From an uncultured Chloroflexia bacterium (GTDB lineage Bacteria; Chloroflexota; Limnocylindria; Limnocylindrales; CSP1-4), in contig CAVXEB010000004.1 in assembly GCA_963760735.1 (NCBI GenBank), positions 1,592,329 through 1,656,328 on the forward strand: DNA of 64,000 bases, given 5' to 3'. The first letter of the stretch is position 1; every line of letters starts with the position of its first letter. The notes below the pieces were generated by a model. The model saw only the letters and a list, made by a program, of their open reading frames with translations, was not told the DNA's origin and made no database searches. Shown here piece by piece: positions 3,601 to 21,264 of the stretch. A program made the position numbers and the translations under genes.

Positions 3601-4194
3601 GTGGATGCGGTGACGACGGCGACGAACGCAGCGACGTCGGTCGACGACGCGCTCGTTCGGCGCGCTCGCTCCGGCGACGCCGCCGCGTTCGAGGTGCTGG
3701 TCGATACGCGGATCGATCGCTGCTACCGGCTTGCCTGGTCGATCCTGTCCAACGACGCGGACGCGGCCGATGCGACGCAGGACGCGCTCGTCGCGGCCTG
3801 GCGCCAGCTTCCGCGCCTCCGCGATTCGGCGTCCTTCGATGGCTGGCTCAACCGGATCGTTGCGAACACCGCCGTGTCGGCGCGCCGGCATCGGGTGCGG
3901 CTCCGCGAGGTGTCGGTCCGACCGGCCGACCCGAGCGCGGAGAGCTCTCCTCCTGAGTCTCCGCAGAACCTCCATGGCCGAACGCAGATGGACGAGATGG
4001 TCGACAACGACGCGATCGGACGTGCCTTCGACCGCCTGCGGCCGAAGGACCGGATGATTCTCGTCCTCCACCACGTCGAGGAGCGGCCCGTGGCCGAGAT
4101 CGCGCGGTCGCTCGGCATCCCGCTCGGAACGGCCAAATGGCGCCTGCATGCCGCTCGCAACGCGCTCGAGAAGGCGATGGAGGCCGAGGCATGA
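3601..4194 (+). CDS. ECF (sigma-70 family, group 4) RNA polymerase sigma factor
   Basis: Region 2 (ALVRRARSGDAAAFEVL ... DATQDALVAAWRQLPRL) and region 4 HTH (ILVLHHVEERPVAEIARSLGIPLGTAKWRLHAARN) are present. The GTG 3601 start is chosen to give a normal approximately 197-aa ECF. In-frame ATG 3439 and ATG 3352 are alternatives. Confidence 0.75.
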   Translation: MDAVTTATNAATSVDDALVRRARSGDAAAFEVLVDTRIDRCYRLAWSILSNDADAADATQDALVAAWRQLPRLRDSASFDGWLNRIVANTAVSARRHRVRLREVSVRPADPSAESSPPESPQNLHGRTQMDEMVDNDAIGRAFDRLRPKDRMILVLHHVEERPVAEIARSLGIPLGTAKWRLHAARNALEKAMEAEA

Positions 4195-5339
4195 ACGCTC
4201 CGCGCTTGACCGACGCCCAGATCGCCCAGGCACTGCGTGTCCATGTTCCGGAGCGCGCAGGGGCCGGCTTGCGCGAACGGACGCTCCGGGCAGCCGGGGC
4301 CACCGCCCAGCAGCGGGCGCTGCCCTCGTTCCTCGGCGCTCTCAGCGAAGCGGACCCGGTCGTGCGGCGGCGAGGCCTCCTCATCGCCGCGGCCCTCCTG
4401 GTTGCGGTGGCATTCGCGGGTGCCGCGGCGGTCGGGGCGTTGCGCCTCCTCCAGCCGGACCCCATCCGCGACCTGAGCGTCCTCACGCCTGAGCACGTCG
4501 AGGACCTCGGCCTCGAGCCGCCGACGGACGTCCAGGCGTTCGTCCTGTCCAGCTACGATCGGATGCCGAAGCTGCCGCCGGTCGCCATGACGTGGCGAGC
4601 CCATGGCTCGGCCAAGGGCCGCATCTATGTCGATCGCTCGGGGGCGGTTCGCTTCGAGCGGTTCGCGTCGGCCGATGCGACGGAGCCCGACACGTACCGG
4701 ATCCTCCGCGGCGACAGCATTGGATCGCTGGAGACCGTCGGGTCCGAGAAGGTCTGGGTCGCGCGGCACGAGGCCATCGGCGAGGACCCGCGGGTGTTCA
4801 TCCTCGCCGAGATCGAAACCGCCCCGATCCATTTCGACGGGCCGGGCTGCGATCTGACTCGGAACGCGGACGAAGCGGGCAACGGGACCGCGGCGACGGG
4901 TTGGCGGTACGTCGGCGTCGAGTCCGTCGCGGGCCGCGCCGCCCACCGCGTCACGTGCGGCGGCGGCGACCTCTGGCTCGATAGCGAGACCCGGCTGATC
5001 CTTCGCGCCCGGACGCCGCTCCTCGACGACGCCGACCAGCCGATCCCGGGTGAGTTCCAGACATTCGAGATCACCGAGATCGCGTTCGGCGAGCAGCCGG
5101 CGGCGCTCTTCGACCTGGCAGCACCCGCAGGCGTCACCGCGGTTCCGATCGAGGACCTGGAGGCGTACCGATGTGCGCGCGATCCGCTCTGTGCTGCCCT
5201 GCCGCCCAGCGAGCGTCCCCATCCCGATACCGGTGTACCGGGGAACGACCCGCCGCCTGAGTCCAGCCCAGATCCGGGCGCGCCAACCGAACAGTCGGAT
5301 TTCGGTGCTCCGGGCAACGGCCCATCGGCAAACCCATGA
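4191..5339 (+). CDS. Putative anti-sigma factor: single-pass membrane protein with an extracytoplasmic beta-rich domain and a Pro-rich tail
   Basis: ATGA overlap with the sigma stop. The N-terminal cytoplasmic segment is followed by one TM helix (LLIAAALLVAVAFAGAAAV) and an extracytoplasmic domain. The gene position is typical of ECF cognate anti-sigmas. Confidence 0.55.
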   Translation: MNAPRLTDAQIAQALRVHVPERAGAGLRERTLRAAGATAQQRALPSFLGALSEADPVVRRRGLLIAAALLVAVAFAGAAAVGALRLLQPDPIRDLSVLTPEHVEDLGLEPPTDVQAFVLSSYDRMPKLPPVAMTWRAHGSAKGRIYVDRSGAVRFERFASADATEPDTYRILRGDSIGSLETVGSEKVWVARHEAIGEDPRVFILAEIETAPIHFDGPGCDLTRNADEAGNGTAATGWRYVGVESVAGRAAHRVTCGGGDLWLDSETRLILRARTPLLDDADQPIPGEFQTFEITEIAFGEQPAALFDLAAPAGVTAVPIEDLEAYRCARDPLCAALPPSERPHPDTGVPGNDPPPESSPDPGAPTEQSDFGAPGNGPSANP

Positions 5340-6661
5340 TCGCCGCAACCAGAGGTGGGGACATGAACCGCCCGTTCAGACGATCTGCGTCGCCGATGGC
5401 AGCGGTGGTCGCGGTCGCTGCGATCCTGACAACCGCCTGCACTGGCGGGGCGGGCGTGGCCAGCGCGACCCCCGCAGCGACGCCTGGACCTACGGCTTCG
5501 CCGGCCCCGAGCGTGACCGCGCCTTCGGCCGCTCCGTCAACCAGCCCGAGCCCGGCGGCGACCCCGCTGATCTGGACCAAGGCGAGCCTGAAGGAGGATT
5601 GGCCGGCCCCGGTCCGCACCGAGCCCACCGGCCCCGCAACCATCGTGCCGATCAGCGACAGGTACCAGGATCCCACGAGCGACACCGAGTCCGGTGCGTT
5701 CCCTTGGACCGACATCCACGTGATCGGGTTCGGGCACAACAACGCCGTCGTGGTCTACGTCCCCGGGGCGCCCAACGTGGATCCGACCGAGCAGTGGATC
5801 GCCTACGGGGTCGTCGTGGATGACGACGGCGACGGCGTCGCGGACCGTCGATTCGGGATGGACAACATCCCAGGGCCCGCGGCGGAATTGCCACACCGGG
5901 CGTGGATCACCGACCTCCACACCGGTCGGACGGAGTCGTCGGTCCTGAACTCGCTTGACTACTTCGAGTCCCCGCAGGGGATCGTCAAGACGCCGATGGT
6001 CGGCGACACCTTCTTCGGCGCCTCCTTTCCGGCCAGGCAGACGGAGACCGACAAGGGCCCGTCCTGCTCACCGGCCCGTCACGCGGGCCCAAGCCATCCT
6101 TACGGCAACCCGCCGCCCTGGATGCGTGGGTTGGCCCCGGGAGAGCTCGAGTTCGGCGGGGGCGGAGACGTTGCCGGGAGCGCCGTTCAGAAGCAGAAGC
6201 CCGACACCAGGCCTGCCCGCTTCTACGCATGGGCATCGGTGATCGTCGATGGCCGGGTCATGGCCACCGATTTCGCCCCGGATGCGGGATGGCTGCATCC
6301 TTCGCCGAAGGCTCAACCGATCGAGGACGAGGTCGCCGTCGCTCCGCCAATCGACTCGCTCGACGAAGCCGTTGCCGCCGTTGGAGTGGTCGAGCCAGGC
6401 TTGACCGGCTTCCTGGCGACCGACACCAAGGTCCCCGGCGTGTCGGCCTGGATCGAGGCCGAGGCACGGGGCGGGGGCTGGGACATCACCTACGTGTGTG
6501 GTGACTCTCCGGACGGCGGCGCCAGCCACGTGGCAGCCGAGATCCACGTCCGCCGGAACGGGACCGTCGACGAGATCTGCGTCTGGCATGATCCGAGCGG
6601 GAACGACTACGCAGCTCCGGGGTACAGCCCGCCTGAAACCGAGGAGGCCGGCGCCTGTTGA
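5336..6661 (+). CDS. Secreted lipoprotein, function unknown
   Basis: ATGA overlap with the upstream gene. The signal peptide has a lipobox (AAILTTAC) and the mature protein is Asp/Gly-rich. The internal ATG at 5363 (MNRPF) is an alternative start. Confidence 0.5.
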   Translation: MIAATRGGDMNRPFRRSASPMAAVVAVAAILTTACTGGAGVASATPAATPGPTASPAPSVTAPSAAPSTSPSPAATPLIWTKASLKEDWPAPVRTEPTGPATIVPISDRYQDPTSDTESGAFPWTDIHVIGFGHNNAVVVYVPGAPNVDPTEQWIAYGVVVDDDGDGVADRRFGMDNIPGPAAELPHRAWITDLHTGRTESSVLNSLDYFESPQGIVKTPMVGDTFFGASFPARQTETDKGPSCSPARHAGPSHPYGNPPPWMRGLAPGELEFGGGGDVAGSAVQKQKPDTRPARFYAWASVIVDGRVMATDFAPDAGWLHPSPKAQPIEDEVAVAPPIDSLDEAVAAVGVVEPGLTGFLATDTKVPGVSAWIEAEARGGGWDITYVCGDSPDGGASHVAAEIHVRRNGTVDEICVWHDPSGNDYAAPGYSPPETEEAGAC

Positions 6662-6951
6662 GCGGCGTGCGACGGAAGTCGCCGAGCCGGGATCGATTCT
6701 GCGATGGGCGTGAGAATGGCTGCGCTCGCGATGGGAGCGACGAGGTCCAGCCCACCAATTGACATCATCGCGGGCTGGACGTGTTCCGGATGGTGCCGGA
6801 GATCGGCGTCGCGCTGCTCTGCCTGTCGATCGTGCCGATCACCGTTGGGATGCTGAAGCTCGAGGACCGAGTCAAACCACGATCTCGCGGAGTACCCCGG
6901 ATGGCGCCGTAGGTCCTCGGCCTTCCCGCCAGGCCCCGACGGCATCCGCGC

Positions 6952-7584
6952 TCAGGATTGCGCGACCGGCTGACGGATGATCGTCCGAAGCTTCTCGGGG
7001 GCACTCCGCCGCGGATCGCCGAGGTAGAGCTCGTGGTGCTTCTCCCGGCGGCCGTCGAACGTGTAGCCGAGCTCATGGATGAAGGCGTGCAGCCGCTCGA
7101 TCGTCGGGCCTTCGTCGCTGTACGGGCCGAGATACATGATCTGCGCCGCAAGCTCTTCCTCGAAGCCCGCCAGGCGTGCTCGGTCGACCGCCGCAAGCCC
7201 CTTCTTGCGGCGGACCTCGCCGCGGGCCCACTCGAAGCGGTCGAGGGTGACGACATCGGGTTGGGAGATCATCGCGGTCCAGTGCCAATTGGCTTTCCGC
7301 CCGGTAGCGAACTCGGCCATGTCGTCGGCCCACCACAGGCCCTCCAATGGCCCGACGCGGTAGGTGAGCCCGATCTCCTTCTTGATGGCGAACCCGAGGG
7401 TGTACGACAGGCCGAACAGCGCCTGGATCGCGCCCCGGTACTCGGTTGACGTGTTGGGGTCGCCCTCGCCGTCGATCTGGATGAACGTCAGCCTCGGCAC
7501 GCGCACCAGCTCAGGCGCCCGAGCCGCTTCGTACAGGCGGTCGATTGGGAGCTCGCGAACGGGAACCGCAGGAGCGGTCGTCAC
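6952..7584 (-). CDS. GyrI-like small-molecule-binding domain protein (AraC effector-binding / YdeE-like)
   Basis: Sequence pattern of GyrI-like domains, including ...RLTFIQIDGEGDP ... GPLEGLWW ... ISQPDVV ... YLGPYSDEGPT..., 210 aa. Confidence 0.65.
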   Translation of the reverse strand: MTTAPAVPVRELPIDRLYEAARAPELVRVPRLTFIQIDGEGDPNTSTEYRGAIQALFGLSYTLGFAIKKEIGLTYRVGPLEGLWWADDMAEFATGRKANWHWTAMISQPDVVTLDRFEWARGEVRRKKGLAAVDRARLAGFEEELAAQIMYLGPYSDEGPTIERLHAFIHELGYTFDGRREKHHELYLGDPRRSAPEKLRTIIRQPVAQS

Positions 7585-7641
7585 GGCACAACCACCTGCT
7601 TCATCTCCCCTCGCCTGACCATGCGTTCGACTTGATCGTAG

Positions 7642-8160
7642 TCAACGTGGGGCGAGCCTGGCCCCGCGGACGGCCAGGTATCCGAGCGCGACGAGGAGCG
7701 GGAGCTGGATGACCCGCAGCGTGATGCCCCACGTCTCGAACGGCGGCGTTCGGGTTGTAGAGACGTCCACGTACGCCCAGTAGACGAACACCTGGAAGAT
7801 CAGGCCCGCGACCCAGACCCAGCGTCGGTCGACGCCCACGAGCAGCACCGCGCCGAGCAGGAACGCGCCACCGGCCAGGGCCCCGAAGACCCACAGGAAG
7901 TCCCGGTCGCTGTCTGTCCCGCCGACGTTCAGCACGCCGAGGCCGATCAGGAAGTAGATGGCGGCCATGATCGCTGCCACGGCAGCCGCACCGTATCGGA
8001 TCGTCCGGCGAGATATACCCACGACGTCGGTCCTCCTTCGATTGGAGGTTGCCCGTGTCTCGGGTCTGGCACCAGTGCCGAACCGACCGTTCCTGCCGGT
8101 CCGTGTCGCTCCGAACACGCTGATCGCCGGCGCTCGATCGGTCATCTCAGGGCACAGCAT
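7642..8160 (-). CDS. Integral membrane protein (about 4 TM), function unknown; true start probably internal
   Basis: Hydrophobic helices AAVAAIMAAIYFLIGLGVL, WVFGALAGGAFLLGAVLLV, WVWVAGLIFQVFVYWAY and LPLLVALGYLAV. Confidence 0.35.
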   Translation of the reverse strand: MLCPEMTDRAPAISVFGATRTGRNGRFGTGARPETRATSNRRRTDVVGISRRTIRYGAAAVAAIMAAIYFLIGLGVLNVGGTDSDRDFLWVFGALAGGAFLLGAVLLVGVDRRWVWVAGLIFQVFVYWAYVDVSTTRTPPFETWGITLRVIQLPLLVALGYLAVRGARLAPR

Positions 8161-8385
8161 GACTGTTGTCGAGGGATGTCAGCCCAGGATCGCCGCTACG
8201 GCGCGATGAGTCTCCGACATGACCCAGGCACTCGAGTCTCGGCGTTTCCCGCGTCGCGGAAGACGTGCCGGCCTTTGTCCGCGCGACCGCTGACGAGCCA
8301 GCGGGTGGCCCCGACGGACGCCTTGGCCTGGCCTGGGTGATCGACAGCGCCCGTTCGGCCCTCCTTGAGCCGGTCTACCTTCAGC

Positions 8386-8793
8386 TCACGGGAGGATCCG
8401 GAAACGTCCGCCACTGAGCGGTCGCAGGACGTCGAAGTGCCGGCGATCGAGGGTCACGATGGTTCGCGTTCGGTAACGCTCGGCCAGGATCACGTTCGAA
8501 GCGTCCGCGACGCCGACGTTCTGGTCTGCATACCGCTCGATGACGGCGCAAGCCTGAACGAGCCCCTCGACATCGATCGCGGGTAGGTCCCATGCACCGC
8601 CGGTCAGCTCCCGCAGAACCGCCATCTCGGCCGAGACGCCGAGCCGAGACGCCACGAGGTAGTCGAGTTCGGCGACCACGTAGGGCGAAACCACGAGGGG
8701 CTCCGTCGCCCCGCCGAGAATGGCGGAAACCGTGTCGTGATCGGGCTCGTCGGTGTCGAAGAATGCGAGCAGCGCGCCGGTGTCGACGATCAC
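8386..8793 (-). CDS. vapC: PIN-domain ribonuclease toxin VapC
   Basis: MIVDTGALLAFFDTDEPDHD ... VVSPYVVAELDYL ... TIVTLDRRHF, with conserved acidic PIN residues; 4-nt overlap with the upstream antitoxin. Confidence 0.85.
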   Translation of the reverse strand: MIVDTGALLAFFDTDEPDHDTVSAILGGATEPLVVSPYVVAELDYLVASRLGVSAEMAVLRELTGGAWDLPAIDVEGLVQACAVIERYADQNVGVADASNVILAERYRTRTIVTLDRRHFDVLRPLSGGRFRILP

Positions 8794-9038
8794 CGCTCGC
8801 CGAACCCGCGCAGATGTTCGTCGGCCTCGCGCGCGATCGGAGCGCGGCTGGCGAACAGGCCACCGCGCGGGCGCGGTCGATCATTGCCGACCGCTTCGCG
8901 GATCGAGTCGCGAATGACCTCGGCCTCGGACACTCCCCGCTGCCGGGCAACGCGCTTGATCGCCGACTTGAGCTCCGTCGGCAAATAGATGGTCGTCTTG
9001 TCCACGCACGTATGGTACCACCGCTGGCGCTGGGCCAA
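8790..9038 (-). CDS. vapB: Ribbon-helix-helix (CopG-like) antitoxin VapB
   Basis: 82 aa. TIYLPTELKSAIKRVARQRGVSEAEVIRDSIRE forms an RHH. The gene overlaps vapC by 4 nt. Confidence 0.75.
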   Translation of the reverse strand: MAQRQRWYHTCVDKTTIYLPTELKSAIKRVARQRGVSEAEVIRDSIREAVGNDRPRPRGGLFASRAPIAREADEHLRGFGER

Positions 9039-9078
9039 CGTGGGCGATCGACTGTGTAGTGTGTTGCCTTGATCTGGT

Positions 9079-9125
9079 TGCGCTTCTGGGATCGACGCTG
9101 CGGGCCGCTCGCCTCCAATCCGACC
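9079..9125. repeat. About 45-nt repeat GGGATCGACGCTGCGGGCCGCT(C/A)GC(C/G)TCC(A/G)A(T/G)CCGACCCT(C/G)A, copy 1 (second copy at 15048-15094)
   Basis: Near-identical sequence found twice in the window, both in intergenic regions flanking the Kelch anti-sigma island. Confidence 0.6.
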
Positions 9126-9158
9126 CTCAGCACCCGAATCCTCAATAGGTCGGTCGGG

Positions 9159-9506
9159 TTACAGGCCCAGATGCAGGCGTAGGGCCTCATCGATGTCGAG
9201 CATGATTGCGTTCGGGACGACGCCCAGCCGGTCACCAACCCGCTCGACGGCAATCGAGCGGATCTGTTCAGCCTGCGCCTTGGAGTCGCGGTCGAGCCCC
9301 GCCTCGGTGGCTGGAAGCAGGACCTGGAACGGATAGACGCGCTCGACGTTCGATGTCACGGGAACCACCGTGATCACGCCGCGACCCAGTCGCCCCGCCG
9401 TCGCGTTGGCCGCGTCGTTGCTGACGATGACCGCTGGCCGGCGCTTGTTCGCCTCGGATCCGCGGGCAGGATCGAGATCGACGGAATGGATGTCGCCGCG
9501 CCGCAT
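9159..9506 (-). CDS. mazF: MazF/PemK-family endoribonuclease toxin
   Basis: MRRGDIHSVDLDPARGSEANKRRPAVIVSNDAAN ... VVPVTS is the classic MazF/PemK N-terminus. The ATG at 9506 overlaps the antitoxin stop (TGATG). Confidence 0.8.
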   Translation of the reverse strand: MRRGDIHSVDLDPARGSEANKRRPAVIVSNDAANATAGRLGRGVITVVPVTSNVERVYPFQVLLPATEAGLDRDSKAQAEQIRSIAVERVGDRLGVVPNAIMLDIDEALRLHLGL

Positions 9507-9727
9507 CACGACTTGAGTCCGTCGCCGGTCGTCGAATCCCAGAGGGTGCCATCGTCCTGGGCGGCCCACTCATCCCACGCCGCTTCGTATGTCCCGCCCA
9601 GCTCGGCCGTGCGCAGCAGGCGAACAGCTCGATGGAGCGCGGCCGATCTGGATTCCAGCCCCTGCTCCTTGGCGTATTCGTCGAGGAACTGGACGTCCTC
9701 GCCCGGGAGGCTGACACTGACTTTCAT
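9506..9727 (-). CDS. mazE: MazE-like antitoxin
   Basis: 73-aa acidic protein (MKVSVSLPGEDVQFLDEYAKEQG...) immediately upstream of and overlapping mazF. Confidence 0.6.
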   Translation of the reverse strand: MKVSVSLPGEDVQFLDEYAKEQGLESRSAALHRAVRLLRTAELGGTYEAAWDEWAAQDDGTLWDSTTGDGLKS

Positions 9728-9871
9728 ACTGAGATGCTACCACCGGTAGGGCTCGGGTGGCAATGCGGGTCTGCCCATGAGCGGAGTCGACACCCCAGTC
9801 CCGGCCCGGCACCATCGCCCTGATCTGGATAGGCGTGAATCAGCACGGTGGTTTCGTGCATCTATCGGGCG

Positions 9872-10426
9872 ATGGTGGCCATGACCGGAAGCACGACGGA
9901 GACCTCGGCGGGCCTGATGCGCCTCGCTGCGGATGGCGACGAGCTGGCCTTCGCGGGCATCGTGGACGCCCACCACGCCGACATGAGCAGTGTTTGCTTC
10001 GTCGTCACGGGTGGTGACGTCGAGCTCACCGAGGAGGCGGTCCAGTCTGCCTGGCCGATCGCCTGGCGGAAGCTGCACACGATCCGCGATCCCGAACGCC
10101 TTCGACCGTGGCTCATCTCGATCGCCGTCAACGAAGCCCGACAGCTGGCGCGTCGTCGACGGCGGGGTCGGGTGCTCGAAATCTCGGTCGCCCGCGATCC
10201 ATCCGCGGAAACCCCCTCGGATCCCGGCTCCCACGTCGGCGACATCGACCTCCGCAATGCCCTTGCCGGCATGAGCGCGGAGGACCGGGCGCTGATCGCC
10301 CTGCGATACGTCGCGGGATTCGATTCCACGGAGCTGGCGCGCGCTCTCCACATGAGTCCCTCCGGCACTCGCGCCCGATTGGCCCGATTGCTTGGCCGTC
10401 TTCGATCGGAGCTTGGCGATGGATGA
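9872..10426 (+). CDS. ECF sigma factor
   Basis: Region 2 (LISIAVNEARQLARRRRR) and region 4 (LIALRYVAGFDSTELARALHMSPSGTRARLAR) are present. The start is ambiguous among in-frame ATG 9872, ATG 9881 and ATG 9917. Confidence 0.8.
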   Translation: MVAMTGSTTETSAGLMRLAADGDELAFAGIVDAHHADMSSVCFVVTGGDVELTEEAVQSAWPIAWRKLHTIRDPERLRPWLISIAVNEARQLARRRRRGRVLEISVARDPSAETPSDPGSHVGDIDLRNALAGMSAEDRALIALRYVAGFDSTELARALHMSPSGTRARLARLLGRLRSELGDG

Positions 10427-13193: not shown

Positions 13194-13198
13194 TCGAT

Positions 13199-14617
13199 GT
13201 GAACCGCAGGTTCGCACCCGTCGTCGTGGTCGCTCTGCTAGTCATCGCCGGCTGTACGACCGGGCAACCGCCTGGGAGCGGGTCCGCTTCGCCGAGCCTG
13301 GCTGTGCCGAGCATGGCGTCCGTCCCGTCGTCGACCCCGACGAGCCCACCCAGCCCGGCAGCCAGCCCCGGAGTGGCCTCGATCTCCGATGGCCCGCTCG
13401 CCCCCGGCACCTACAGGATCCCGCAGTGGGACACGGGCTGCAGCGAGCACCAGCCAGGGTGCAGCCCGTCGCCCGCGCATGACGCCGTCCGCGTGACCCT
13501 CACCGTGCCCGGTGGCTGGGAGGGGATCGCGGGCACGATCTGGTTGGCCGAAAAGGGGAATGGGGCGCCCGACGGGGCCGGTCTGCTCGTCGGCAGGGGC
13601 GCCTGGCTGCTGACCGATGCGTGCACGAAGGCCGAACACGCGATCCCTCCGGATATCGAGGTCGGACCGAGTGTCGACGACTTCGCCAACGCCATCGCGG
13701 GTCATCCACTGCTCGATGCCTCGGATCCTGTCGACGTCACCCTTGCCGGATACGCCGGCAAGTACATCGACCTGCAGGTGCCGGCCGATCTCTCCAAGTG
13801 CGAGGTCTACCGTCCCTTCGATCCCGGGATCTACGCCCAGGGGCCGAGCCACCAGTGGCACCTCTGGATCCTCGACGTGGATGGCCTCCGCTTCGTGGTC
13901 CAGAGCACGGACTACCCAGGAACGTCGGCAAAGCACAAGACGCAGCTCAAAGCGATCGTGGATTCGATCAGGATCGACACTGGCGCGACGCCCGAGGTCC
14001 TCGGGGAGCGGCTGGCGGCCGGCACCCACACGGCGGCACCGTTCGACCCAGCGCTGCCCGACGCGTGGGGCGTCTGTGTTGGCCAGCCCGGCTGTTCGGA
14101 AGATCCCGCCGACGACTCGATCCGCATCACCTATACGGTGTCGGAGGGCTGGGCCTTCGGCTACGGGGCCGCGGTGACCAAACCGTCCGCGGGCACGGTC
14201 GCACCGAGCGGGATGAGCCTGCACTTCCTCCGTGGCGGGTGGCTGTTCAGCGACCCTTGCGTCACGACCGAAAGACCGCCGGACATCGAGGTCGGGCCGA
14301 CCGCCGACGACTTCGCCGACGCGCTCGCCGCCCATCCGCTCCTGGATGTCACGACGCCGGTCGATGTCAGGCTCGGTGGGTTCTCAGGGAAGTACCTCGA
14401 CCTCCAGGTGCCGGCTGACATCAGCGCCTGCGCCGAGTCCTACTACCCCTGGACGCCCGCCTTCTCTGCCCAGGGCCCGAACCATCGATGGCACATCTGG
14501 AACCTCGATGTCGACGGCGTCCGGGTCGTGATCCAGAGCGGAGACTTCGCAGGGACGCTACCGGAGAACCTCGTCGAGATGCACACAATCATCGAGTCCA
14601 TCCAGATCGAGCCCTGA
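13199..14617 (+). CDS. Secreted lipoprotein containing two tandem copies of an uncharacterised approximately 190-aa domain (paralogous to the ectodomain of anti-sigma 15738-16700)
   Basis: GTG 13199 gives MNRRFAPVVVVALLVIAGC with a lipobox; TTG 13190 is the alternative. The internal repeat spans DIEVGPSVDDFANAIAGHPLLD ... LQVPADLSKC ... WHLWILDVDGLRFVVQS and DIEVGPTADDFADALAAHPLLD ... LQVPADISAC ... WHIWNLDVDGVRVVIQS. Confidence 0.7.
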   Translation: MNRRFAPVVVVALLVIAGCTTGQPPGSGSASPSLAVPSMASVPSSTPTSPPSPAASPGVASISDGPLAPGTYRIPQWDTGCSEHQPGCSPSPAHDAVRVTLTVPGGWEGIAGTIWLAEKGNGAPDGAGLLVGRGAWLLTDACTKAEHAIPPDIEVGPSVDDFANAIAGHPLLDASDPVDVTLAGYAGKYIDLQVPADLSKCEVYRPFDPGIYAQGPSHQWHLWILDVDGLRFVVQSTDYPGTSAKHKTQLKAIVDSIRIDTGATPEVLGERLAAGTHTAAPFDPALPDAWGVCVGQPGCSEDPADDSIRITYTVSEGWAFGYGAAVTKPSAGTVAPSGMSLHFLRGGWLFSDPCVTTERPPDIEVGPTADDFADALAAHPLLDVTTPVDVRLGGFSGKYLDLQVPADISACAESYYPWTPAFSAQGPNHRWHIWNLDVDGVRVVIQSGDFAGTLPENLVEMHTIIESIQIEP

Positions 14618-14928
14618 CACGATTGGCTCGAGTGGCTCGCGCCGCTCGACGCGCGGGCCGGACGTGTGAGCGGTGTTGGTCGGACGCTCTCCTCGGCCAC
14701 CTGCCCGATGGCCGGCAGTGTCTGAGCCGCGGCCGCTGCGGACGGCTCACTCGGTTCGTCGATGGAACGGCCGTATTGAGCCGGAGCGAGTAGCCGTCGG
14801 CCTCGTTCGGGCGACCTCACGGTCATCAGCTACTCGAGCGTTGTGCCAGGCATTCGAGCGGAAGCGCAAGCGGGTTCGCCTCGGAGCACAGGGCTGATGC
14901 CTTTGTGCATCGGCTATTCTTGATCGGC

Positions 14929-14965
14929 GCCGACATAGCTCAGCGGTAGAGCAGCTGTTTCGTAA
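14929..14965 (+). repeat. 5' half of tRNA-Thr(CGT) (acceptor 5' strand through the anticodon loop, GCCGACATAGCTCAGCGGTAGAGCAGCTGTTTCGTAA); att-like remnant
   Basis: Identical to nt 1-37 of the intact tRNA at 21265. The identity breaks exactly in the anticodon loop and is followed by a 55-nt sequence identical to that after the 17663 copy. Confidence 0.8.
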
Positions 14966-15047
14966 GTCTCCCGCCCTGTGCGCAGTGCTACCCCGAGTGG
15001 CGGCCCGATACAAACGGGCACACTTATCAGCTATTCAATTCTTGGGG

Positions 15048-15094
15048 TGGTCCGCCTAGGATCGACGCTGCGGGCCGCTAGCGTCCGAGCCGAC
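15048..15094. repeat. About 45-nt repeat, copy 2 (see 9079-9125)
   Basis: GGATCGACGCTGCGGGCCGCTAGCGTCCGAGCCGACCCTGA matches 9079-9125 at about 85% identity. Confidence 0.6.
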
Positions 15095-15186
15095 CCTGAC
15101 TACCCGCACTGAACGATTCCGGCGCTCCGTACCCTCATGCTCGATAGACCGCGGTCGTCTCGACCACGGCTGATCGCCGGAGACCC

Positions 15187-15741
15187 ATGGACCGAGACCT
15201 CGTCGAGCGGGCGCGCTCGGGCGACCAGGCGGCATTCGAGGATCTGGTGCACCAGGTCAGCGACACGCTGTTCGGGATCGCTCGACGCATCCTGCGCGAT
15301 CCCGGCCTCGCCGAGGACGTTCTGCAGAACGCCCTTGTGACCATTTGGCGGAAGCTGCCGCATCTGCGGGAGCCAGACCGCTTCGAGGCATGGGCCTACC
15401 GGATCCTCGTCAACGCTTGCTACGCGGTTGCTCCGCACAACCGGAGATGGGCATCGACCGTGCGCGTTCTCCCAATCGATCGGGCGGACGACGTGGACGC
15501 TTACCAATCGATCTCCAATCGCGACGAGTTGGAGCAGGCTTTCCGCCGGCTACCGCTCGACCAGCGGGCGGTGTTCGTCCTCCACCACCACGTGGGCCTG
15601 CCCCTCGTGGCAGTGGCCGAGACGCTCGGCATCCCCGACGGAACCGCCCGCTCGCGACTGCACTACGCCACCCGCGCACTTCGGTCCGCTTTCGAGGCGG
15701 GCCGGGCGCCGATCAAGGTCCAGGAAGGGCGACTGTCATGA
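15187..15741 (+). CDS. ECF sigma factor
   Basis: MDRDLVERARSGDQAAFEDLVHQ ... ALVTIWRKLPHL ... VFVLHHHVGLPLVAVAETLGIPDGTARSRLHYA, 184 aa. Confidence 0.85.
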   Translation: MDRDLVERARSGDQAAFEDLVHQVSDTLFGIARRILRDPGLAEDVLQNALVTIWRKLPHLREPDRFEAWAYRILVNACYAVAPHNRRWASTVRVLPIDRADDVDAYQSISNRDELEQAFRRLPLDQRAVFVLHHHVGLPLVAVAETLGIPDGTARSRLHYATRALRSAFEAGRAPIKVQEGRLS

Positions 15742-16700
15742 GCGACGACCGAGCCTTCGAACGCGCCGTGGACGACTGGCTGGCAGACGGGTCCGACCGG
15801 ACCCCTCGGCCGGTGGTCGACGCCGTCTTCCTGGCCATCAAGACGACACCACAATCGCGGGATCTTCGGATTCCGTGGAGGACCCCACCCATGTCCGTTC
15901 CGCTGCGGCTCGCCGCCGGGATCGCGGTCGTCGCGATCGTCGGCTTCGCGGCCCTGACCGTCTTCACACCGGGCACCGGCCCCGGCTCCGGCCCGACGCC
16001 GGCGCCGTCGGCCACTCTCGCGCCGACCCCGTCACCGTCGCTCCTCCCCGCGGCTGGCGCCCTCGAACCGGGGACGTATGATTGGATTGCGTACTACACG
16101 CCCGTGGGGGGAGCGCGGTTCACCATCACCGTACCCGAGGGATGGGCGACGGCTGAGGGAGGAGTATTCGTCTATAGGAATCGCGTGGCCGCTGCGGCGA
16201 GCATGCCGCCGTTCACTGGATCTGGCGAGGTCCTACTCGCTATCTGGACCGTCAGCCATGTCTACACCGACGCCTGCCATCACGATGCGACGCTGGTCGA
16301 CGCCGGAACGACGATCGATGAGCTTGCGAGCTTGCTGGTGGCGCAGAAGGGCCGGGTCGCGTCGGCCGCCACCGACGTCACCCTGGGGGGCTTCCCGGCC
16401 AAGCGGATCGAGTTGACCGTCCCGGCCGACCTCGATGTCACGAAATGCGACGGGGGAATCATCAGGTTCTGGCCGGACCCGGGCCCGGATGAGTCCGGCG
16501 GCCTGTGCTGCAGTGCCGTCGGTTCGACCGATGTCGTCTATGTCGTCGACGTCGCCGGCGATCGCTTCGCCGTCGTTGCCAGGCATCAGGCGAGCAGCTC
16601 TGCCGAGGAGCTGGCCGAGCTCGAGGCCATCGTCGCTTCCATCAAGATCGAACCGCCGGCAACCAGTCCGTCCCCATCGGGCGCGTCCCCGTCTCCCTGA
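15738..16700 (+). CDS. Anti-sigma factor with one TM helix and an extracytoplasmic domain homologous to the lipoprotein 13199-14617 repeat
   Basis: ATGA overlap with the sigma stop. The TM helix is LAAGIAVVAIVGFAALTVF. The ectodomain (EPGTYDW ... TVPEGW ... DAC ... DVTLGGFPAKRIELTVPADLDVTKC ... VYVVDVAGDRFAVVARH) aligns with both repeats of the lipoprotein. Confidence 0.7.
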   Translation: MSDDRAFERAVDDWLADGSDRTPRPVVDAVFLAIKTTPQSRDLRIPWRTPPMSVPLRLAAGIAVVAIVGFAALTVFTPGTGPGSGPTPAPSATLAPTPSPSLLPAAGALEPGTYDWIAYYTPVGGARFTITVPEGWATAEGGVFVYRNRVAAAASMPPFTGSGEVLLAIWTVSHVYTDACHHDATLVDAGTTIDELASLLVAQKGRVASAATDVTLGGFPAKRIELTVPADLDVTKCDGGIIRFWPDPGPDESGGLCCSAVGSTDVVYVVDVAGDRFAVVARHQASSSAEELAELEAIVASIKIEPPATSPSPSGASPSP

Positions 16701-16826
16701 TCGGCCACACGACGCAAGGCACGCTTCAATCCGAGGGGGAGCCCGTGCTCCCCCCGGAAGGATTGGGGTCTCCAGAGTGACACCCGCTTACGCCACGTCG
16801 CCCTGACAAGTGCTACTATGTCGCAC

Positions 16827-17090
16827 ATGGAACGTGTCGGTGTGCGCGAGCTTCGGCGTCAGGCCAGTGCCATCCTGCGAAGAGTCGCCGCGGGCGAGAC
16901 GATCGAGGTCACTGATCGAGGACGTCCGGTCGCGGTCCTGCTGCGATCGATGCCAACCGGTCTGGCCAAGCTCGAGCGCGAAGGACTGCTGCGTCGCGCC
17001 GAGGCTGACCTGCTCGACCTCCCCACGGTCCAGCTGCCGGCCAATTCACCCGCTCCGTCCGACCTCGTGTCGAAGGCGCGGACGGATTGA
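16827..17090 (+). CDS. Phd/YefM-family antitoxin
   Basis: MERVGVRELRRQASAILRRVAAGETIEVTDRGRPVAVLL matches the Phd/YefM fold; it overlaps the downstream PIN toxin by 4 nt. The ORF track places the start at 16818 (MSHM...). Confidence 0.7.
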   Translation: MERVGVRELRRQASAILRRVAAGETIEVTDRGRPVAVLLRSMPTGLAKLEREGLLRRAEADLLDLPTVQLPANSPAPSDLVSKARTD

Positions 17091-17482
17091 AGGCCGTCTA
17101 TCTCGATAGCTCGGCGTTCGTCAAGCTGGTCGTCACCGAGGCGCAGTCGACCGAGCTCCGAGAATTCCTCGCGACGCACGAGGCTCGCCGCGTGTCGTCT
17201 TCCCTCCTCCGGGCCGAAGCCCTCCGAGCGGTCCGCCACCTGGGGCCTGACGCTCTCGCCATCGCCCGCGAGGGCCTTCGGCGTGTCGACCTGATCGCCA
17301 TCGACGATCGGATCCTCGATGCGGCCGGCATCCTCGAGCCTCGAATACTGCGCACGCTCGATGCCATCCATCTCGCGACCGCTCTGACGCTAGGTGACGA
17401 CCTCGACACGATCGTGACCTACGACGATCGGATGATCGAGGGGGCGGCGCTCATCGGGCTGGCCGCCGTCGCCCCGCGCTGA
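17087..17482 (+). CDS. vapC: PIN-domain toxin VapC
   Basis: MKAVYLDSSAFVKLVVTEAQS ... SSSLLRAEAL ... DAIHLATAL ... IVTYDDRM. Confidence 0.85.
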   Translation: MKAVYLDSSAFVKLVVTEAQSTELREFLATHEARRVSSSLLRAEALRAVRHLGPDALAIAREGLRRVDLIAIDDRILDAAGILEPRILRTLDAIHLATALTLGDDLDTIVTYDDRMIEGAALIGLAAVAPR

Positions 17483-17662
17483 TTGCGCCTAGATCGAACG
17501 GTCGTGCGGTTCGGGACCTCTCAAGGGTGCCCGACAGTCGTCGGCGTAGACACACTTATCAGCTGTTCGAGCGCTGTGCTACCGCTCTGAGCACGATCGC
17601 CGGCATGCTCCCGTGAGGGCGAATTGCCGCTGTGCGTTGAGCATCGGCTATTCTTGATCGGC

Positions 17663-17699
17663 GCCGACATAGCTCAGCGGTAGAGCAGCTGTTTCGTAA
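17663..17699 (+). repeat. Second copy of the 5' half of tRNA-Thr(CGT); att-like remnant
   Basis: It is identical to 14929-14965 and to nt 1-37 of the intact tRNA. It is embedded in an approximately 130-nt repeat (17642-17770 versus 14912-15036). Confidence 0.8.
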
Positions 17700-17870
17700 G
17701 TCTCCCGCCCTGTGCGCAGTGCTACCCCGAGTGGCGGCCCGATACAAACGGGCACACGTTTCAGCTATTCGGATTCAGGCACTGCCCGCCGCAGACGCAC
17801 GCTACGGCTGCGTCTTCCCGACACGACCCGGATGACCCTCCGCGATCCAACTGAACGCTCAACATCCCGT

Positions 17871-19052
17871 TCAAGAGCCGGAGACGGGGGCCCAGCTGTA
17901 CGTGCCATAGGTGGACGGTTCGTGGGTCACCTGGCCGATGAAGGCGCCGTCGAGATCCATGATCCAGAGGTCGTTGAGATCGCCGGCACCACGCTGGACG
18001 AGCAGATACTTCCCGTCCGGCGACCACTCGCCGACCTCGGCTTGGTCGGAGCCATCGGTCGCCGAGATTTCCTTCTGATCGCTGCCGTCGGGGCGGACCA
18101 GCGAGACCACGGACGTGCTCCCGTGCTTCCGCGAATAGGTGATCCACTCTCCGGTCGGAGACCACGACACCGCCCAGACAAAGTCCGCGCGCTCCGTGAT
18201 CGGTCGGGCCTCGCCGTCGTCGACGTCGACGTCGACGACGTAGATCCTGCCCTCGACGCCGAACGTCGCGCGCCTCCCATCCGGCGAGAGGCTGCCGACT
18301 GGCACGTCGAAGAAGTCGATCTTCGTGCCCGGCGGGTTGAGCTGGCGCAAGCCGCTGCCATCGGCGTTGACGACGTACACGTCGCCCGCCTCGTGCGGCT
18401 CGTCAGCACGTTCGGCCATGAACAGGATCTTCGACGCGCCCGGCGTGATCCCGAATGGATCGACATGGGCGATCCCCTCCGGAAGCGCGATCACGAGGCG
18501 GAGGTCGGCGAGGTCGGGGGATCCAAGGTACAGGCCGTTCCGAGCCGGCCGCGTATCATCCCAGCCGTCGAAGGCGATCCATCGACCATCTACGCTCGGC
18601 GTTGCCGGGCCAAGGGTGAGCGTCTTGATGGGTGGATCGATGACCGTGCGGTCAGCGCCATCCGGCCGCATCGTGGTGAACGACCAGGTGCCGTGCCCGG
18701 TGGAGCCCATCGTCCAGACGTGCGTCCCGTCCGTCGACCAACGGGCGCAGGCGCAGCCTTCGGCCGTGAAGAGCGCACGCTCATCCGTCCCGTCCGTGTT
18801 GATTGTGAAGTAGTGCTCCACCTGATCCGAGCCGCGACGATGGAACAGGATCCGGCCCGGCGGGACTTCGGCCGGGACCGCGGTCGCCGTGGGCTCGGGT
18901 GATGCGAGCGCCGTTCGACCAGGAGATGCCGGTGCAGTCGGCGAGGCGCCCGACCGAGCTGGGCCCGAGCCCTGGCAGGCCACCAACGACAGGGCAAGCA
19001 CCAGCCGCAAGCCTGCCCGTGGCCGACGAGTATTCACGACGTCGGCTGCCAA
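17871..19052 (-). CDS. Lipoprotein with PD40 / TolB-like beta-propeller repeats
   Basis: The signal peptide has lipobox LSLVAC. Repeated WSxDG(T/K) PD40 motifs are present (WSTDGTHVW, WSPTGEWITY, WSPDGKYLLV). The 5' end overlaps the upstream anti-sigma by 19 nt. Confidence 0.7.
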   Translation of the reverse strand: MAADVVNTRRPRAGLRLVLALSLVACQGSGPARSGASPTAPASPGRTALASPEPTATAVPAEVPPGRILFHRRGSDQVEHYFTINTDGTDERALFTAEGCACARWSTDGTHVWTMGSTGHGTWSFTTMRPDGADRTVIDPPIKTLTLGPATPSVDGRWIAFDGWDDTRPARNGLYLGSPDLADLRLVIALPEGIAHVDPFGITPGASKILFMAERADEPHEAGDVYVVNADGSGLRQLNPPGTKIDFFDVPVGSLSPDGRRATFGVEGRIYVVDVDVDDGEARPITERADFVWAVSWSPTGEWITYSRKHGSTSVVSLVRPDGSDQKEISATDGSDQAEVGEWSPDGKYLLVQRGAGDLNDLWIMDLDGAFIGQVTHEPSTYGTYSWAPVSGS

Positions 19053-20374
19053 AGCGCGTTGATCAGGAATTCGGTAACGGGAATCTTGCTATCTGGATCG
19101 TGGACCCACGCACAGGCCAAGCAGCCCGCTGCCGAGAGCTGGGCCACGTCCTCGACCGGCAGCTTGGCCTTGTTGGCGCCATCGGCATCCATGATCCAAA
19201 GCTCGAATCCCGTGGGCGCCGACGGATCGCCAACGCTGTGGGCGAAGACCAGGCGCCCATCTGCCGTCCAATTCGGTCGGCCAGAAGCGCGGTCGGTCGT
19301 CAAGGCCTGAAGACCGGTGCCGTCCGGGCGAATGGCGTAAATATCCCCGCCATGGGGAGTCTCACCGGGGGTCTCGCCGTAGAAGACGATCAGCGAGCCA
19401 TCCGGCGACCAGCGCGGCTCGATGGCATAGAGGTTCCGCGGGCCAATCTGATGCAGGTTGCTCCCATCAGCATTGACCATGAGGAGCGTCGCTTGGGAGG
19501 GACGGGCCGTCTGCCGAGCGAAGGTCAATCGGGTCCCGTCCGGCGACCAATGCGGCGCGTCATTGCGGTCGGAGGCCGTCGAGGCGAGCTCGGTGACGTG
19601 ACCGGTGGCCACGTCCACCAGGGCGATCACCGATCCCCCCGAGGTCGTGATGGGCGGCCGGGCGAACGCGATCGTGGCGCCGTCTGGCGAGAACTCGTAG
19701 CCCGAGACCGTGGGGCAGCCGATCGGGCACAAGACGTCAAATGGGAGCGACTGCAGGACGGCGCCCGACGCATCGGCCAGCCACAGTCCCGCGGCATCCT
19801 CGAAGAGCAGGCGGGTCCCATCACGTGACCACGAAAGGGGGGTCTGGTAACCGTGGTGGTCCGGCAGCAATTCGTGCGCATTGGTTCCATCCGTGTTCGA
19901 AACCCAGATCCGCGAGCATCCGGTGGGCCGCTGGTCGTCCCACCAACCCCTAGCTCCACGCTCACAGTCCGTGTCGACCGCCTCGAGTGGAACGAACTTC
20001 ACGTACGCGATCAGGCCCGAGGACGCAGGGGGCACTGAAGGGGCCTCCGACCGGAGTTCGGCGGATGGTTCGGTGGACGGATCCGCCGACCTGACAACGG
20101 ACGGCGGCACGACAGACGGCAACTTGACGATGCCGGACCCAGCGATGAGCGCCCCGCCCACGATCGCGCTGATCAATGCTGCGGCGACGAGCACGAGACT
20201 CGTCCGGCGACCGAACCTGGCCGGCCAGCGGCCGAACCAGCGGCGCTGCGGCACGAGGGGGATCGTCGCCAGGACGTGCTGGTAGAAGCGGTCTTCGTCT
20301 CCCAGGTCGGCAGCCCGCTCGCGGAGTCCTTGGGCGAGGTACGTATCGACGAGGTCGGGGTCGATGGTGGTCAT
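19034..20374 (-). CDS. Anti-sigma factor with one TM helix and an extracytoplasmic PD40/TolB-like beta-propeller
   Basis: 4-nt overlap with the ECF sigma 20371-20934. The TM helix is LVLVAAALISAIVGGALIAGSGI. PD40 motifs follow (WSRDGTRLLF, FSPDGATIAF, WSPDGTRLTF, WSPDGSLIVF). Confidence 0.7.
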   Translation of the reverse strand: MTTIDPDLVDTYLAQGLRERAADLGDEDRFYQHVLATIPLVPQRRWFGRWPARFGRRTSLVLVAAALISAIVGGALIAGSGIVKLPSVVPPSVVRSADPSTEPSAELRSEAPSVPPASSGLIAYVKFVPLEAVDTDCERGARGWWDDQRPTGCSRIWVSNTDGTNAHELLPDHHGYQTPLSWSRDGTRLLFEDAAGLWLADASGAVLQSLPFDVLCPIGCPTVSGYEFSPDGATIAFARPPITTSGGSVIALVDVATGHVTELASTASDRNDAPHWSPDGTRLTFARQTARPSQATLLMVNADGSNLHQIGPRNLYAIEPRWSPDGSLIVFYGETPGETPHGGDIYAIRPDGTGLQALTTDRASGRPNWTADGRLVFAHSVGDPSAPTGFELWIMDADGANKAKLPVEDVAQLSAAGCLACAWVHDPDSKIPVTEFLINALWQPTS

Positions 20375-20934
20375 GCCTGGGTCTCCAGCGCTCGTCCGAG
20401 CGCCTTTCGCGCGGCGTGGAGCCGTGACTTCGCGGTGCCGACGGGAATGCCGAGCTCCCGCGCGACCTGGTCCAGAGGGCGCTCCTCGAGATGGTGGAGG
20501 GCAAGGATCTGGCGATCGGCGATCGACAGGCGATCGAAGGCGGCCAGCACCGCGGCGCGCTCGAGCGCATGCGGCGCTGGATCCGCGGCTTGCAGAGCCG
20601 CTCCCTCGAGGTCGATCTCCCTTATGCGCCCACGCCTGCGCAGCAGATCACGGCAGCGGTTTGCGAGGATGGTGTTCAGCCACGCGTTGAACCGGCGCTC
20701 GTCACGAAGCCGCGGGAGGTTCTGCCAGGCCGAGACGAAGGCATCCTGGGTGGCATCCCGGGCGTCTGCCTCGTTCCTGACGATCGTGCGGGCGAGCCTG
20801 AGCAGGCCCGGCAGCCGGTCCGCCATCAGGAGGCCGAATGCGTCGGCGTCACCGCGCGCCGCTCGGGTGATGAGGACGTCATCGGCGACCGACGCCGCAT
20901 CGCGGGTGCCTCGGGTCAGGTCCAAGGCGCACAT
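20371..20934 (-). CDS. ECF sigma factor
   Basis: LITRAARGDADAFGLLMADR ... DATQDAFVSAWQNLPRL ... ILALHHLEERPLDQVARELGIPVGTAKSRLHAARK, 187 aa. Confidence 0.85.
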   Translation of the reverse strand: MCALDLTRGTRDAASVADDVLITRAARGDADAFGLLMADRLPGLLRLARTIVRNEADARDATQDAFVSAWQNLPRLRDERRFNAWLNTILANRCRDLLRRRGRIREIDLEGAALQAADPAPHALERAAVLAAFDRLSIADRQILALHHLEERPLDQVARELGIPVGTAKSRLHAARKALGRALETQA

Positions 20935-20966
20935 CGTGGGCTCCTCGTAGGTCGCATGTCACGTAT

Positions 20967-21256: not shown

Positions 21257-21264
21257 CGTGCGGC

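Follow-up and report, generated by a model that had tools for sequence, protein, structure and literature searches.

The 64-kb stretch of DNA analysed here (contig CAVXEB010000004.1; hereafter the window) carries four genes for sigma factors of the extracytoplasmic function (ECF) type, each followed by the gene of a single-pass membrane protein, the putative anti-sigma factor, and, in modules 1, 2, and 4, by that of a secreted lipoprotein. On balance, we favour the reading that these are four paralogous cassettes of one lineage-specific family of sigma factors and membrane-bound anti-sigma factors, with swappable sensors, with lipoproteins as co-sensors, and with the character of movable units.

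In the proposed mechanism, the co-translated single-pass protein would tether the sigma factor to the membrane by means of a short cytoplasmic head of two helices, after which comes a conserved (T/P)xQRR motif. On the outside, the same protein would carry one of several swappable sensors: domain X in module 1, two 7-repeat Kelch propellers in module 2, domain M in module 3, and a PD40 propeller in module 4. The lipoproteins of modules 1, 2, and 4 would serve as a detachable second sensor, or co-sensor, on the same face of the membrane, as domain fusions and gene order suggest. The signal would presumably be the binding of an envelope lipid, glycan, or protein, and, by analogy with RseA/RseB, the sigma factor would be released by regulated proteolysis of the anti-sigma factor or by a conformational change. 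The cassettes would move as units: modules 3 and 4 lie in two tandem, integrase-less islets at the anticodon loop of a tRNA-Thr(CGT) gene, and modules 1-3 are found at different positions in close relatives.

All coordinates are positions in the window (Table 1), L-numbers denote related loci, and P-numbers homologous proteins. The window has a G+C content of about 68%, and the closest named relatives of its proteins come from metagenome-assembled genomes of Candidatus Limnocylindrales and of Chloroflexota; the host is an uncultured Chloroflexota soil bacterium related to Candidatus Limnocylindrales (Limnocylindria-like).

Sigma factors and the membrane proteins encoded beside them

In Pfam, each of the four sigma factors matches Sigma70_r2 and Sigma70_r4_2 only (expectation values, E, of 1e-7 to 1e-16); all four thus have the sigma-2 and sigma-4 regions alone, which is the architecture of ECF (group 4) sigma factors. 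With lengths of 184-197 amino acids (aa), where about 170-200 aa is typical of the group, they also lie above the cut-off of the sigma70-ECF model TIGR02937 (55-82 bits against 42.9), and the four ECF sigma genes called in an earlier note on this DNA are thereby confirmed. Pairwise identities of 28-48% make them paralogues. All of them fall below the cut-offs of the named NCBIfam equivalog and subfamily models (SigE-fam_strep, PRK11922, and others). The start codon of sigma 1 is uncertain, because its open reading frame (ORF) is open from 3352. A hidden Markov model (HMM) built from the four sequences found no fifth copy in the 64 kb, so the density of four sigma genes in 17 kb (3.6-21 kb), with none in the other 43 kb, is real, and the clustering noted before holds.

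The genes of each module are tightly coupled. Sigma genes 1-4 overlap the downstream membrane-protein genes by 4, 8, 4, and 4 nucleotides (nt), and the lipoprotein genes overlap the preceding gene by 4 nt in module 1 and 19 nt in module 4; lipoprotein gene 2 begins 5 nt past the stop, though with the TTG at 13190 as its start it would overlap by 4 nt. Coupling by overlaps, as had been claimed, is therefore found throughout at 4-19 nt, apart from the 5-nt gap at lipoprotein gene 2 unless the TTG start is used. Each of the four membrane proteins has a single hydrophobic segment, at about residues 50-93, in agreement with the earlier description of a single-pass membrane protein directly after each sigma factor. 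The same layout recurs in the related loci, where nearly all evaluable sigma genes are followed, with an overlap of 4-8 nt, by a protein with one membrane helix (residues 52-78). Four rows of that survey lack a membrane-helix protein, and in one of these, L002, the wrong reading frame had been picked.

The N-terminal heads of the four membrane proteins fit one pattern, composed of a helix, a proline-containing loop, a second helix, and a (T/P)xQRR-like motif, and their alignment has an invariant glutamine directly before the membrane helix. AlphaFold2 models of two of the proteins were built with 54-55 homologues; that of anti-sigma 3 has helices at residues 4-18 and 24-36 and the membrane helix at 54-75; in anti-sigma 1, the helices are predicted at 8-18 and 27-37, followed by a 4-residue turn and the membrane helix at 56-87. 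The four-helix bundle of class I anti-sigma domains, which takes up about 80-90 aa before the membrane helix, is absent from both models, and no Cys/His zinc motif (HxxxCxxC) is visible in any of the four heads. An RskA or zinc-finger class I fold of the cytoplasmic parts, on which the earlier note had staked its anti-sigma assignment, is thus not what we find: Pfam detects none, and AlphaFold2 predicts two short helices only. Class II anti-sigma domains (CnrY, NepR) form a structural class distinct from class I (PMC8103513). As modelled, the heads can only be class II-like or of a new type, and their predicted layout resembles class II.

Sequence models give a faint signal. The NCBIfam "anti-sigma factor" model NF052375 is weakly matched by 28 of 54 homologues of anti-sigma 3 (best E 8e-4), and the Pfam and NCBIfam scans gave weak matches to the CU044_5270 family as well. 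The weak but recurrent NF052375 matches are the only hint from sequence itself that these proteins may be anti-sigma factors. The family PF26056 was listed for two homologues of anti-sigma 3; hmmscan did not reproduce it, and we discarded it. The main argument for an anti-sigma role is the gene context, since all four proteins are encoded at position +1 of an ECF sigma gene, have a membrane anchor, and share a family-wide cytoplasmic part. These same context criteria were used for predicting anti-sigma factors by Casas-Pastor et al. (PMC7826278), where most predicted anti-sigma factors have no Pfam match and their function as such is not guaranteed.

That caution, together with the lack of a sequence match to described anti-sigma domains and a head of two helices against the four of class I, could be taken to mean that the membrane proteins do not inhibit the sigma factors, but are co-expressed receptors, scaffolds, or positive regulators, with the sigma factors otherwise controlled. 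We consider this improbable. The +1 position, the translational coupling, the N-in single-pass topology, and a head that is common to the paralogues and to hundreds of homologues with any type of ectodomain all argue for inhibitors; in addition, class II anti-sigma domains are known (PMC8103513), and the NF052375 matches, weak as they are, recur.

Putative sensor domains and their lipoprotein counterparts

Ectodomain X of anti-sigma 1 has the unclosed beta-barrel with a helical plug that marks RseB/MucB/LolA-like structures; the Pfam family MucB_RseB gave no match for anti-sigma 1 at E ≤ 0.1. In module 1, one polypeptide thus unites what Proteobacteria encode as RseA plus RseB. Ectodomain M of anti-sigma 3 has the alpha-beta-alpha sandwich of the Mog1/PsbP-like fold (MTC28, LpqN, PsbP). 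By their folds, both X and M would belong to families that bind lipids or serve as protein-docking modules.

Anti-sigma 2 and anti-sigma 4 carry propellers. In anti-sigma 2 (Kelch_1, E 1.6e-50 in Pfam), we count 14 Kelch-type repeats in two blocks of 7, the blades being predicted; of the two six-bladed Kelch propellers described earlier, the two blocks stand, and the six blades per block give way to seven (14 repeats = 2 × 7). Its orthologue in L004 is 84% identical, and relatives with one Kelch propeller occur in L005, L008, L010, and L011, where a sigma gene precedes wherever the repeats start the protein. For anti-sigma 4, Pfam finds PD40 at E 8.6e-15. The TolB propeller model matches at E 7e-24 but far below its equivalog cut-off, so the protein is not TolB itself; the PD40/TolB-like type assigned before to anti-sigma 4 and to lipoprotein 4 is borne out by Pfam. 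Homologues of anti-sigma 4 sit after a sigma gene with a 4-nt overlap, and this head and membrane helix recur in the PD40 homologues at the loci inspected. Ectodomains of this size had been called unusual, a claim that we find weak: in the metagenome protein search, PD40 proteins of the same size, most covering at least 80% of anti-sigma 4, fill the best matches listed. A metagenome scan with anti-sigma 4 returned mainly distant PD40 proteins, and only L012-L014 were informative. More distant PD40 homologues of anti-sigma 4 among the matches of the protein search (P0188, P0189, P0194, P0200, P0201, P0208, and P0232; about 700-750 aa) carry a Trans_reg_C winged-helix domain (PF00486), and the Joint Genome Institute (JGI) names two of these [quoted passage not shown]. 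Evidently, a single protein can also unite a PD40 sensor and a DNA-binding domain.

All three lipoproteins have a signal peptide with a lipobox cysteine (TTAC, IAGC, and LVAC), in keeping with their description as secreted lipoproteins; judged by pattern inspection, IAGC and LVAC are good lipoboxes and TTAC, in lipoprotein 1, is atypical. Lipoprotein 2 consists of two M domains, the second of which (13976-14617) is an internal tandem duplication; only one M domain is present in its orthologues from L004/L077 and L005. Both repeats of lipoprotein 2 are matched by the anti-sigma 3 ectodomain at 29-31% identity (E 1e-15 and 8e-8), which confirms that this ectodomain corresponds to one repeat unit of lipoprotein 2. 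Such likeness between a lipoprotein of one module and the sensor of another could allow cross-talk between modules. Lipoprotein 4 shows a weak likeness to the ectodomain of its own anti-sigma 4 (26% identity, E 5e-7). Sequence comparison finds no likeness between lipoprotein 1 and the anti-sigma 1 ectodomain. The idea that each lipoprotein is a paralogue of its own sensor therefore survives, weakly, for module 4 and fails for modules 1 and 2.

The link between lipoprotein and sensor is to be found elsewhere. The Y domain of lipoprotein 1 matches the C-termini of anti-sigma 1 homologues of 560-590 aa at 36-55% identity (E down to 1e-68). Among the best 120 homologues of anti-sigma 1, all of which contain X, domain Y stands behind X in 55, PD40 in 11, M in 5, and Kelch in one; nothing is recognised behind X in the remainder, 41 with the head found, like the window protein, and 7 with the head not found. 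Because Y is fused behind X in these homologues, lipoprotein 1 is a split-off form of a domain that is often part of the anti-sigma factor. This fusion ("Rosetta stone") evidence is a stronger argument for the lipoprotein link than the paralogy proposed earlier. No relative of domain Y was found in Pfam or the PDB, and hhalign does not relate it to M; in a library of 1.84e9 cluster representatives, 436 are related to Y at E ≤ 0.001, with Y either free (starting at residue 50-90) or fused (starting after residue 300). Y also follows X in L078 and L079, where a 68-aa sigma fragment and split tblastn matches suggest frame-shifted assemblies.

Two further observations concern Y. At about residues 102-116 of lipoprotein 1 (window about 5640-5685) lies an invariant acidic DDDxDGxxDxRxG, reminiscent of calcium-binding loops. 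In L001, the gene at 19223-19969 encodes a Y-like N-terminal part (35% identity to lipoprotein 1 residues 146-321) joined to a META domain and is placed directly upstream of another sigma/anti-sigma pair; Y-type proteins can thus precede a module.

The trio of sigma factor, anti-sigma factor, and lipoprotein is conserved in other genomes, as the scheme of the earlier note would require, in that modules 1, 2, and 4 recur in related loci. Module 1 is found in L077 as sigma, anti-sigma (69% identical), and lipoprotein (74%), and on the contig of P0243 a gene for 469 aa occupies the position of lipoprotein 1. Module 2 is complete in L004 (sigma, Kelch anti-sigma, and single-domain M lipoprotein, with proteins 84-95% identical), and two such trios stand in tandem in L005. 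Module 4 recurs in L012, L013, L074/L075, and L076, where a PD40 protein directly follows the PD40 membrane protein (anti-sigma 65-67% identical) and the sigma gene stands in front in all but the truncated L012. The lipoprotein 4 orthologues of L012 and L013 are 48-53% identical, and L074-L076 have PD40 proteins in the matching position. The module 3 pair, again without a lipoprotein, is also present in L001, L002, and L003.

The lipoproteins might instead be outputs, i.e., the first regulon members of autoregulated sigma operons (such as proteins for binding or for envelope maintenance), which share domains with the sensors through the lineage's reuse of secreted domains. ECF operons often include target genes, e.g., sigK-rskA next to mpt70/mpt83 in mycobacteria. 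Lipoprotein 2 being unrelated to its own Kelch anti-sigma, the absence of a lipoprotein from module 3 and from one sigma/PD40 pair of L074, and the stand-alone occurrence of the M and Y types (the coverage of many hits is confined to the anti-sigma 3 ectodomain, and Y often begins close to the N-terminus) would all fit such outputs. What we find hard to explain for a regulon product is that Y is fused in 55 of the 120 homologues, with PD40 and M in the matching place; moreover, the lipoprotein genes overlap the anti-sigma genes by 4-19 nt, and the gene order is conserved down to about 50% identity. We therefore regard the output explanation as rather unlikely and retain lipoproteins as co-sensors.

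The co-sensor reading can be taken one step further, tentatively. A built-in RseB-like domain might dock an interchangeable Y, PD40, Mog1/PsbP, or Kelch domain, supplied either in fused form or as a lipoprotein, with binding or release of the lipoprotein gating the sigma factor; the cassettes might be traded between genomes on tiny integrase-less islets, which would recombine at the tRNA-Thr anticodon loop and supply both a promoter and a 5' tRNA half of their own. This split-sensor arrangement is possible, though we would not give it an even chance.

tRNA-Thr islets and the probable mobility of the cassettes

Modules 3 and 4 are bordered by fragments of a single tRNA gene. Three mismatch-free copies of the 5' half (37 nt) of the tRNA-Thr(CGT) gene, the integration target, are present: two orphans at 14929 and 17663, and one within the intact gene itself (21265). 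Identity among the copies extends as far as the anticodon loop (...CAGCTGTTTC/GTAA), beyond which they diverge; the stretches of about 150 nt that precede the 5' copies are related as well. Islets A and B share their left end, since 17700-17770 (71 nt) is part of a 134-nt repeat whose other copy, 14903-15036, is 98% identical. Direct tRNA repeats at the borders, by which genomic islands are recognised, are therefore present, and the same structure is seen in L001 and L077. We also considered the orphan copies as tRNA genes missed by ARAGORN and rejected this, because Rfam, too, detects a single tRNA, and past the anticodon loop the copies no longer agree. In the earlier note, two of the modules were placed on tRNA-associated islets; the half-tRNA borders around modules 3 and 4 uphold this, with only one tRNA intact.

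The related loci show these units in other settings. In L001, the same tRNA neighbours module 3, which is the only module enclosed there by an orphan 5' half and the intact tRNA; in L074, this tRNA adjoins a homologue of module 4. In L077, islet A comes after module 1 with two genes between, and modules 2 and 4 are missing there. Over 2806 nt, islet A and its L077 counterpart share 98.9% identity, against 80-94% for the shared backbone genes, a contrast that indicates a probable recent transfer, or conversion, of the islet. Its toxin-antitoxin pair accompanies module 3 in the window and in L077, not in L001; the antitoxin was named by the Pfam record of its L077 gene (98.9% identical DNA). Module 2 likewise behaves as a movable unit, with a sharply defined left border some 90 nt ahead of sigma 2; it is located downstream of module 1 in the window and upstream of CorA in L004, and L005 has an extra trio inserted at this very border. 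The horizontal mobility suggested earlier is thus supported by the tRNA-half repeats, the shuffled positions in relatives, and the 98.9%-identical islet A.

Short motifs accompany the tRNA copies. CAGCTRTTYSR occurs six times in the window, always on the + strand (14952, 17560, 17686, 17762, 21288, and 21365), with 0.2 expected by chance; three of the six are in tRNA anticodon stem-loops, and the other three are offset from a copy by about 126 nt on its upstream side or about 76 nt on its downstream side. These may be core or arm sites of a recombinase, and CAGCTGTTTCGTAA is a candidate sequence for a tyrosine recombinase. In L074, a comparable 3'-half copy is found 4.4 kb from its tRNA. Downstream of the window tRNA, 21340-21433 (about 94 nt) belongs to a stretch of 169 nt, including the tRNA, with 92% identity to L074, where the neighbouring module 4 genes are about 73% identical at the DNA level; Rfam has no family for 21340-21433.

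Modules multiply locally as well. Tandem arrays in L005 (4055-10722, two Kelch trios), L010 (4830-12122, two to three Kelch modules), and L074 (5465-11974, two PD40 modules) make local multiplication of cassettes common in this lineage. That the four modules stand together could hence be functionally meaningless, the outcome of cassettes accumulating at a tRNA hot spot plus local duplication, within a lineage that is rich in ECF sigma factors, each module being an independent switch. We think this rather probable: the modules are apart or reordered in L001, L004, and L077, two of them sit in separate islets, toxin-antitoxin genes separate them, and tandem modules occur elsewhere too (L005, L010, and L074). 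We see nothing that speaks against it, and it is compatible with the favoured reading, which concerns each cassette and not cross-talk among them.

Several findings weigh against the favoured reading of sensory, movable cassettes. In the heads, Pfam finds no anti-sigma domain (zf-HC2, RskA, etc.) at E ≤ 0.1, and a head profile run against the PDB sequences gave chance hits only and no solved anti-sigma factor. The predicted local distance difference test scores (pLDDT) of the heads are moderate, about 60-74 in anti-sigmas 1 and 3. The upstream regions of the four sigma genes have no motif common to all and no convincing shared ECF promoter; conserved blocks are seen within each orthologue group, and a candidate GAACC-N16-CGTC element, itself weak, lies about 35 nt upstream of the sigma 4 ATG. 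By sequence comparison, lipoprotein 2 is unrelated to the neighbouring Kelch ectodomain of anti-sigma 2. Because module 3 and a second sigma/PD40 pair in L074 have no lipoprotein, the lipoprotein partner is not obligatory. No integrase or recombinase domain was found among the islet genes or the genes scanned at 21.6-31 kb. Finally, the module 4 homologue of L074 stands beside its tRNA without an orphan 5' half, so the linkage of module 4 to the tRNA may be old synteny and not a recent insertion.

The genes around the cassettes include a GyrI-like gene, a PIN toxin, and a MazF toxin, which are located between modules. The largest ORF of the window (1520 aa) lies at 43427-47989 on the minus strand.

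Table 1. Features of the sigma/anti-sigma region, with positions in the 64-kb window
Feature	Position	Strand	Remarks
ECF sigma factor 1	3601-4194	+	Sigma70_r2 and Sigma70_r4_2 only; TIGR02937 passed; 92% identical orthologue in L004/L077
Putative anti-sigma 1	4191-5339	+	Head ~8-37, membrane helix ~56-88, ectodomain X ~100-335, Pro-rich tail
Lipoprotein 1	5336-6661	+	Lipobox TTAC 32-35; orphan domain Y ~40-328, C-terminal extension
ECF sigma factor 2	9872-10426	+	Sigma70_r2/Sigma70_r4_2; 93-95% identical orthologues in L004, L005
Putative anti-sigma 2	10419-13193	+	Head, membrane helix ~64-93, 2 × 7 Kelch repeats, conserved C-terminal domain ~770-924
Lipoprotein 2	13199-14617	+	Lipobox IAGC; two tandem Mog1/PsbP-like M domains
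ECF sigma factor 3 (islet A)	15187-15741	+	Sigma70_r2/Sigma70_r4_2; 98-99% identical in L001, L077
Putative anti-sigma 3	15738-16700	+	Helices 4-18, 24-36; membrane helix 54-75; ectodomain M ~105-305
ECF sigma factor 4 (islet B)	20371-20934	minus	Sigma70_r2/Sigma70_r4_2; TIGR02937 passed
Putative anti-sigma 4	19034-20374	minus	Head, membrane helix ~54-89, PD40/TolB-like propeller
Lipoprotein 4 (islet B)	17871-19052	minus	Lipobox LVAC; PD40 propeller type, PD40 E 7.8e-6
Intact tRNA-Thr(CGT)	21265-21339	+	Integration target; ARAGORN; Rfam 72.6 bits
Orphan 5'-half copy 1	14929-14965	+	Exact 37-nt match to 21265-21301; left border of islet A
Orphan 5'-half copy 2	17663-17699	+	Exact 37 nt; border of islet A and islet B
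3'-half copy	24027-24064	+	1 mismatch; right border of islet C
Islet A	14966-17699		Module 3 and Phd/PIN toxin-antitoxin pair
Islet B	17700-21301		Module 4
Islet C	21340-24064		TetR, SRPBCC/Polyketide_cyc2, two small ORFs; no sigma module
Phd/YefM-type antitoxin (islet A)	16818-17090	+	Toxin-antitoxin pair with the following gene
PIN toxin (islet A)	17087-17482	+	PIN by Pfam
ParA-like ATPase gene	2344-3183	minus	Upstream of module 1
PIN toxin gene	8386-8793	minus	Adjoins cassettes
MazF toxin gene	9159-9569	minus	Adjoins cassettes

Comparison with known systems

ECF sigma/anti-sigma pairs are a very common route by which bacteria sense the outside, and for most predicted anti-sigma factors the sensor domain and the signal lack assignment (PMC7826278). 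The series of fused and split forms points to definite pairs, namely the X-containing anti-sigma 1 with the Y-containing lipoprotein 1, and the two PD40 propellers of module 4. It would also give a proposed role to the orphan domain families Y and M, neither of which has a Pfam model. An RseB/LolA-like domain on an anti-sigma factor, in a lineage thought to be free of an outer membrane, raises the question of a lipid or envelope cue. The islets suggest horizontal exchange of whole sensory switches in an abundant uncultured soil lineage, and orthogonal sigma/anti-sigma pairs with modular sensors would be useful parts for synthetic biology. Within the open-access literature, we found no paper tying Kelch or PD40 ectodomains to ECF anti-sigma factors, no description of RseB-like or Mog1-like ectodomains on Chloroflexota ECF anti-sigma factors, and no description of these modules in Limnocylindria, the sole Limnocylindria paper found merely counting sigma factors.

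The closest parallels are RpoE-RseA-RseB of Escherichia coli and AlgU-MucA-MucB of Pseudomonas, in which one operon likewise encodes an ECF sigma factor, a single-pass anti-sigma factor, and an accessory protein outside the cytoplasm. By binding to the outer domain of RseA, RseB gates the proteolysis of RseA (PMC8103513). In the window, by comparison, the RseB-like domain is within the anti-sigma factor, and the separate or fused partner is Y; the cytoplasmic head has two helices, whereas that of RseA is a four-helix class I domain. The Chloroflexota host is probably without an outer membrane or lipopolysaccharide. With class II (CnrY of Cupriavidus metallidurans, NepR), the heads share two short helices and the absence of a zinc motif, but they have no detectable sequence similarity to any solved chain. 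Class II domains wrap a short two-helix segment around sigma-2 and sigma-4. In CnrY, the two helices are directly followed by the membrane helix. CnrY has nearly no ectodomain, whereas the anti-sigma factors of the window carry sensors of 200-850 aa.

Paralogous sets with a common head and varied outer modules are known from SigI-RsgI of Clostridium (Acetivibrio) thermocellum, which has several such pairs and whose outer modules are shared with secreted proteins. SigI does not belong to the ECF type, and the RsgI sensor modules bind carbohydrate; to our knowledge, SigI-RsgI has no downstream lipoprotein, no split-sensor arrangement, and no tRNA islets. A lipoprotein that modulates an ECF pathway from outside the membrane exists in sigE-cseA-cseB-cseC of Streptomyces coelicolor, namely CseA; that SigE is under two-component control without an anti-sigma factor, and CseA is unrelated to the domains found in the window.

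The islets, finally, have the direct tRNA repeats and tandem stacking of genomic islands at tRNA anticodon loops, with a toxin-antitoxin pair in one of them. They differ from the usual tRNA islands in being only 2.7-3.6 kb long and without an integrase, and in that two of them copy the 5' half and the upstream region of the tRNA instead of the usual 3' part. These modules go beyond the standard scheme in their short head, in having an RseB-like domain built in, in sensors that come in both fused and split forms, and in the tiny tRNA islets on which whole switches are carried.

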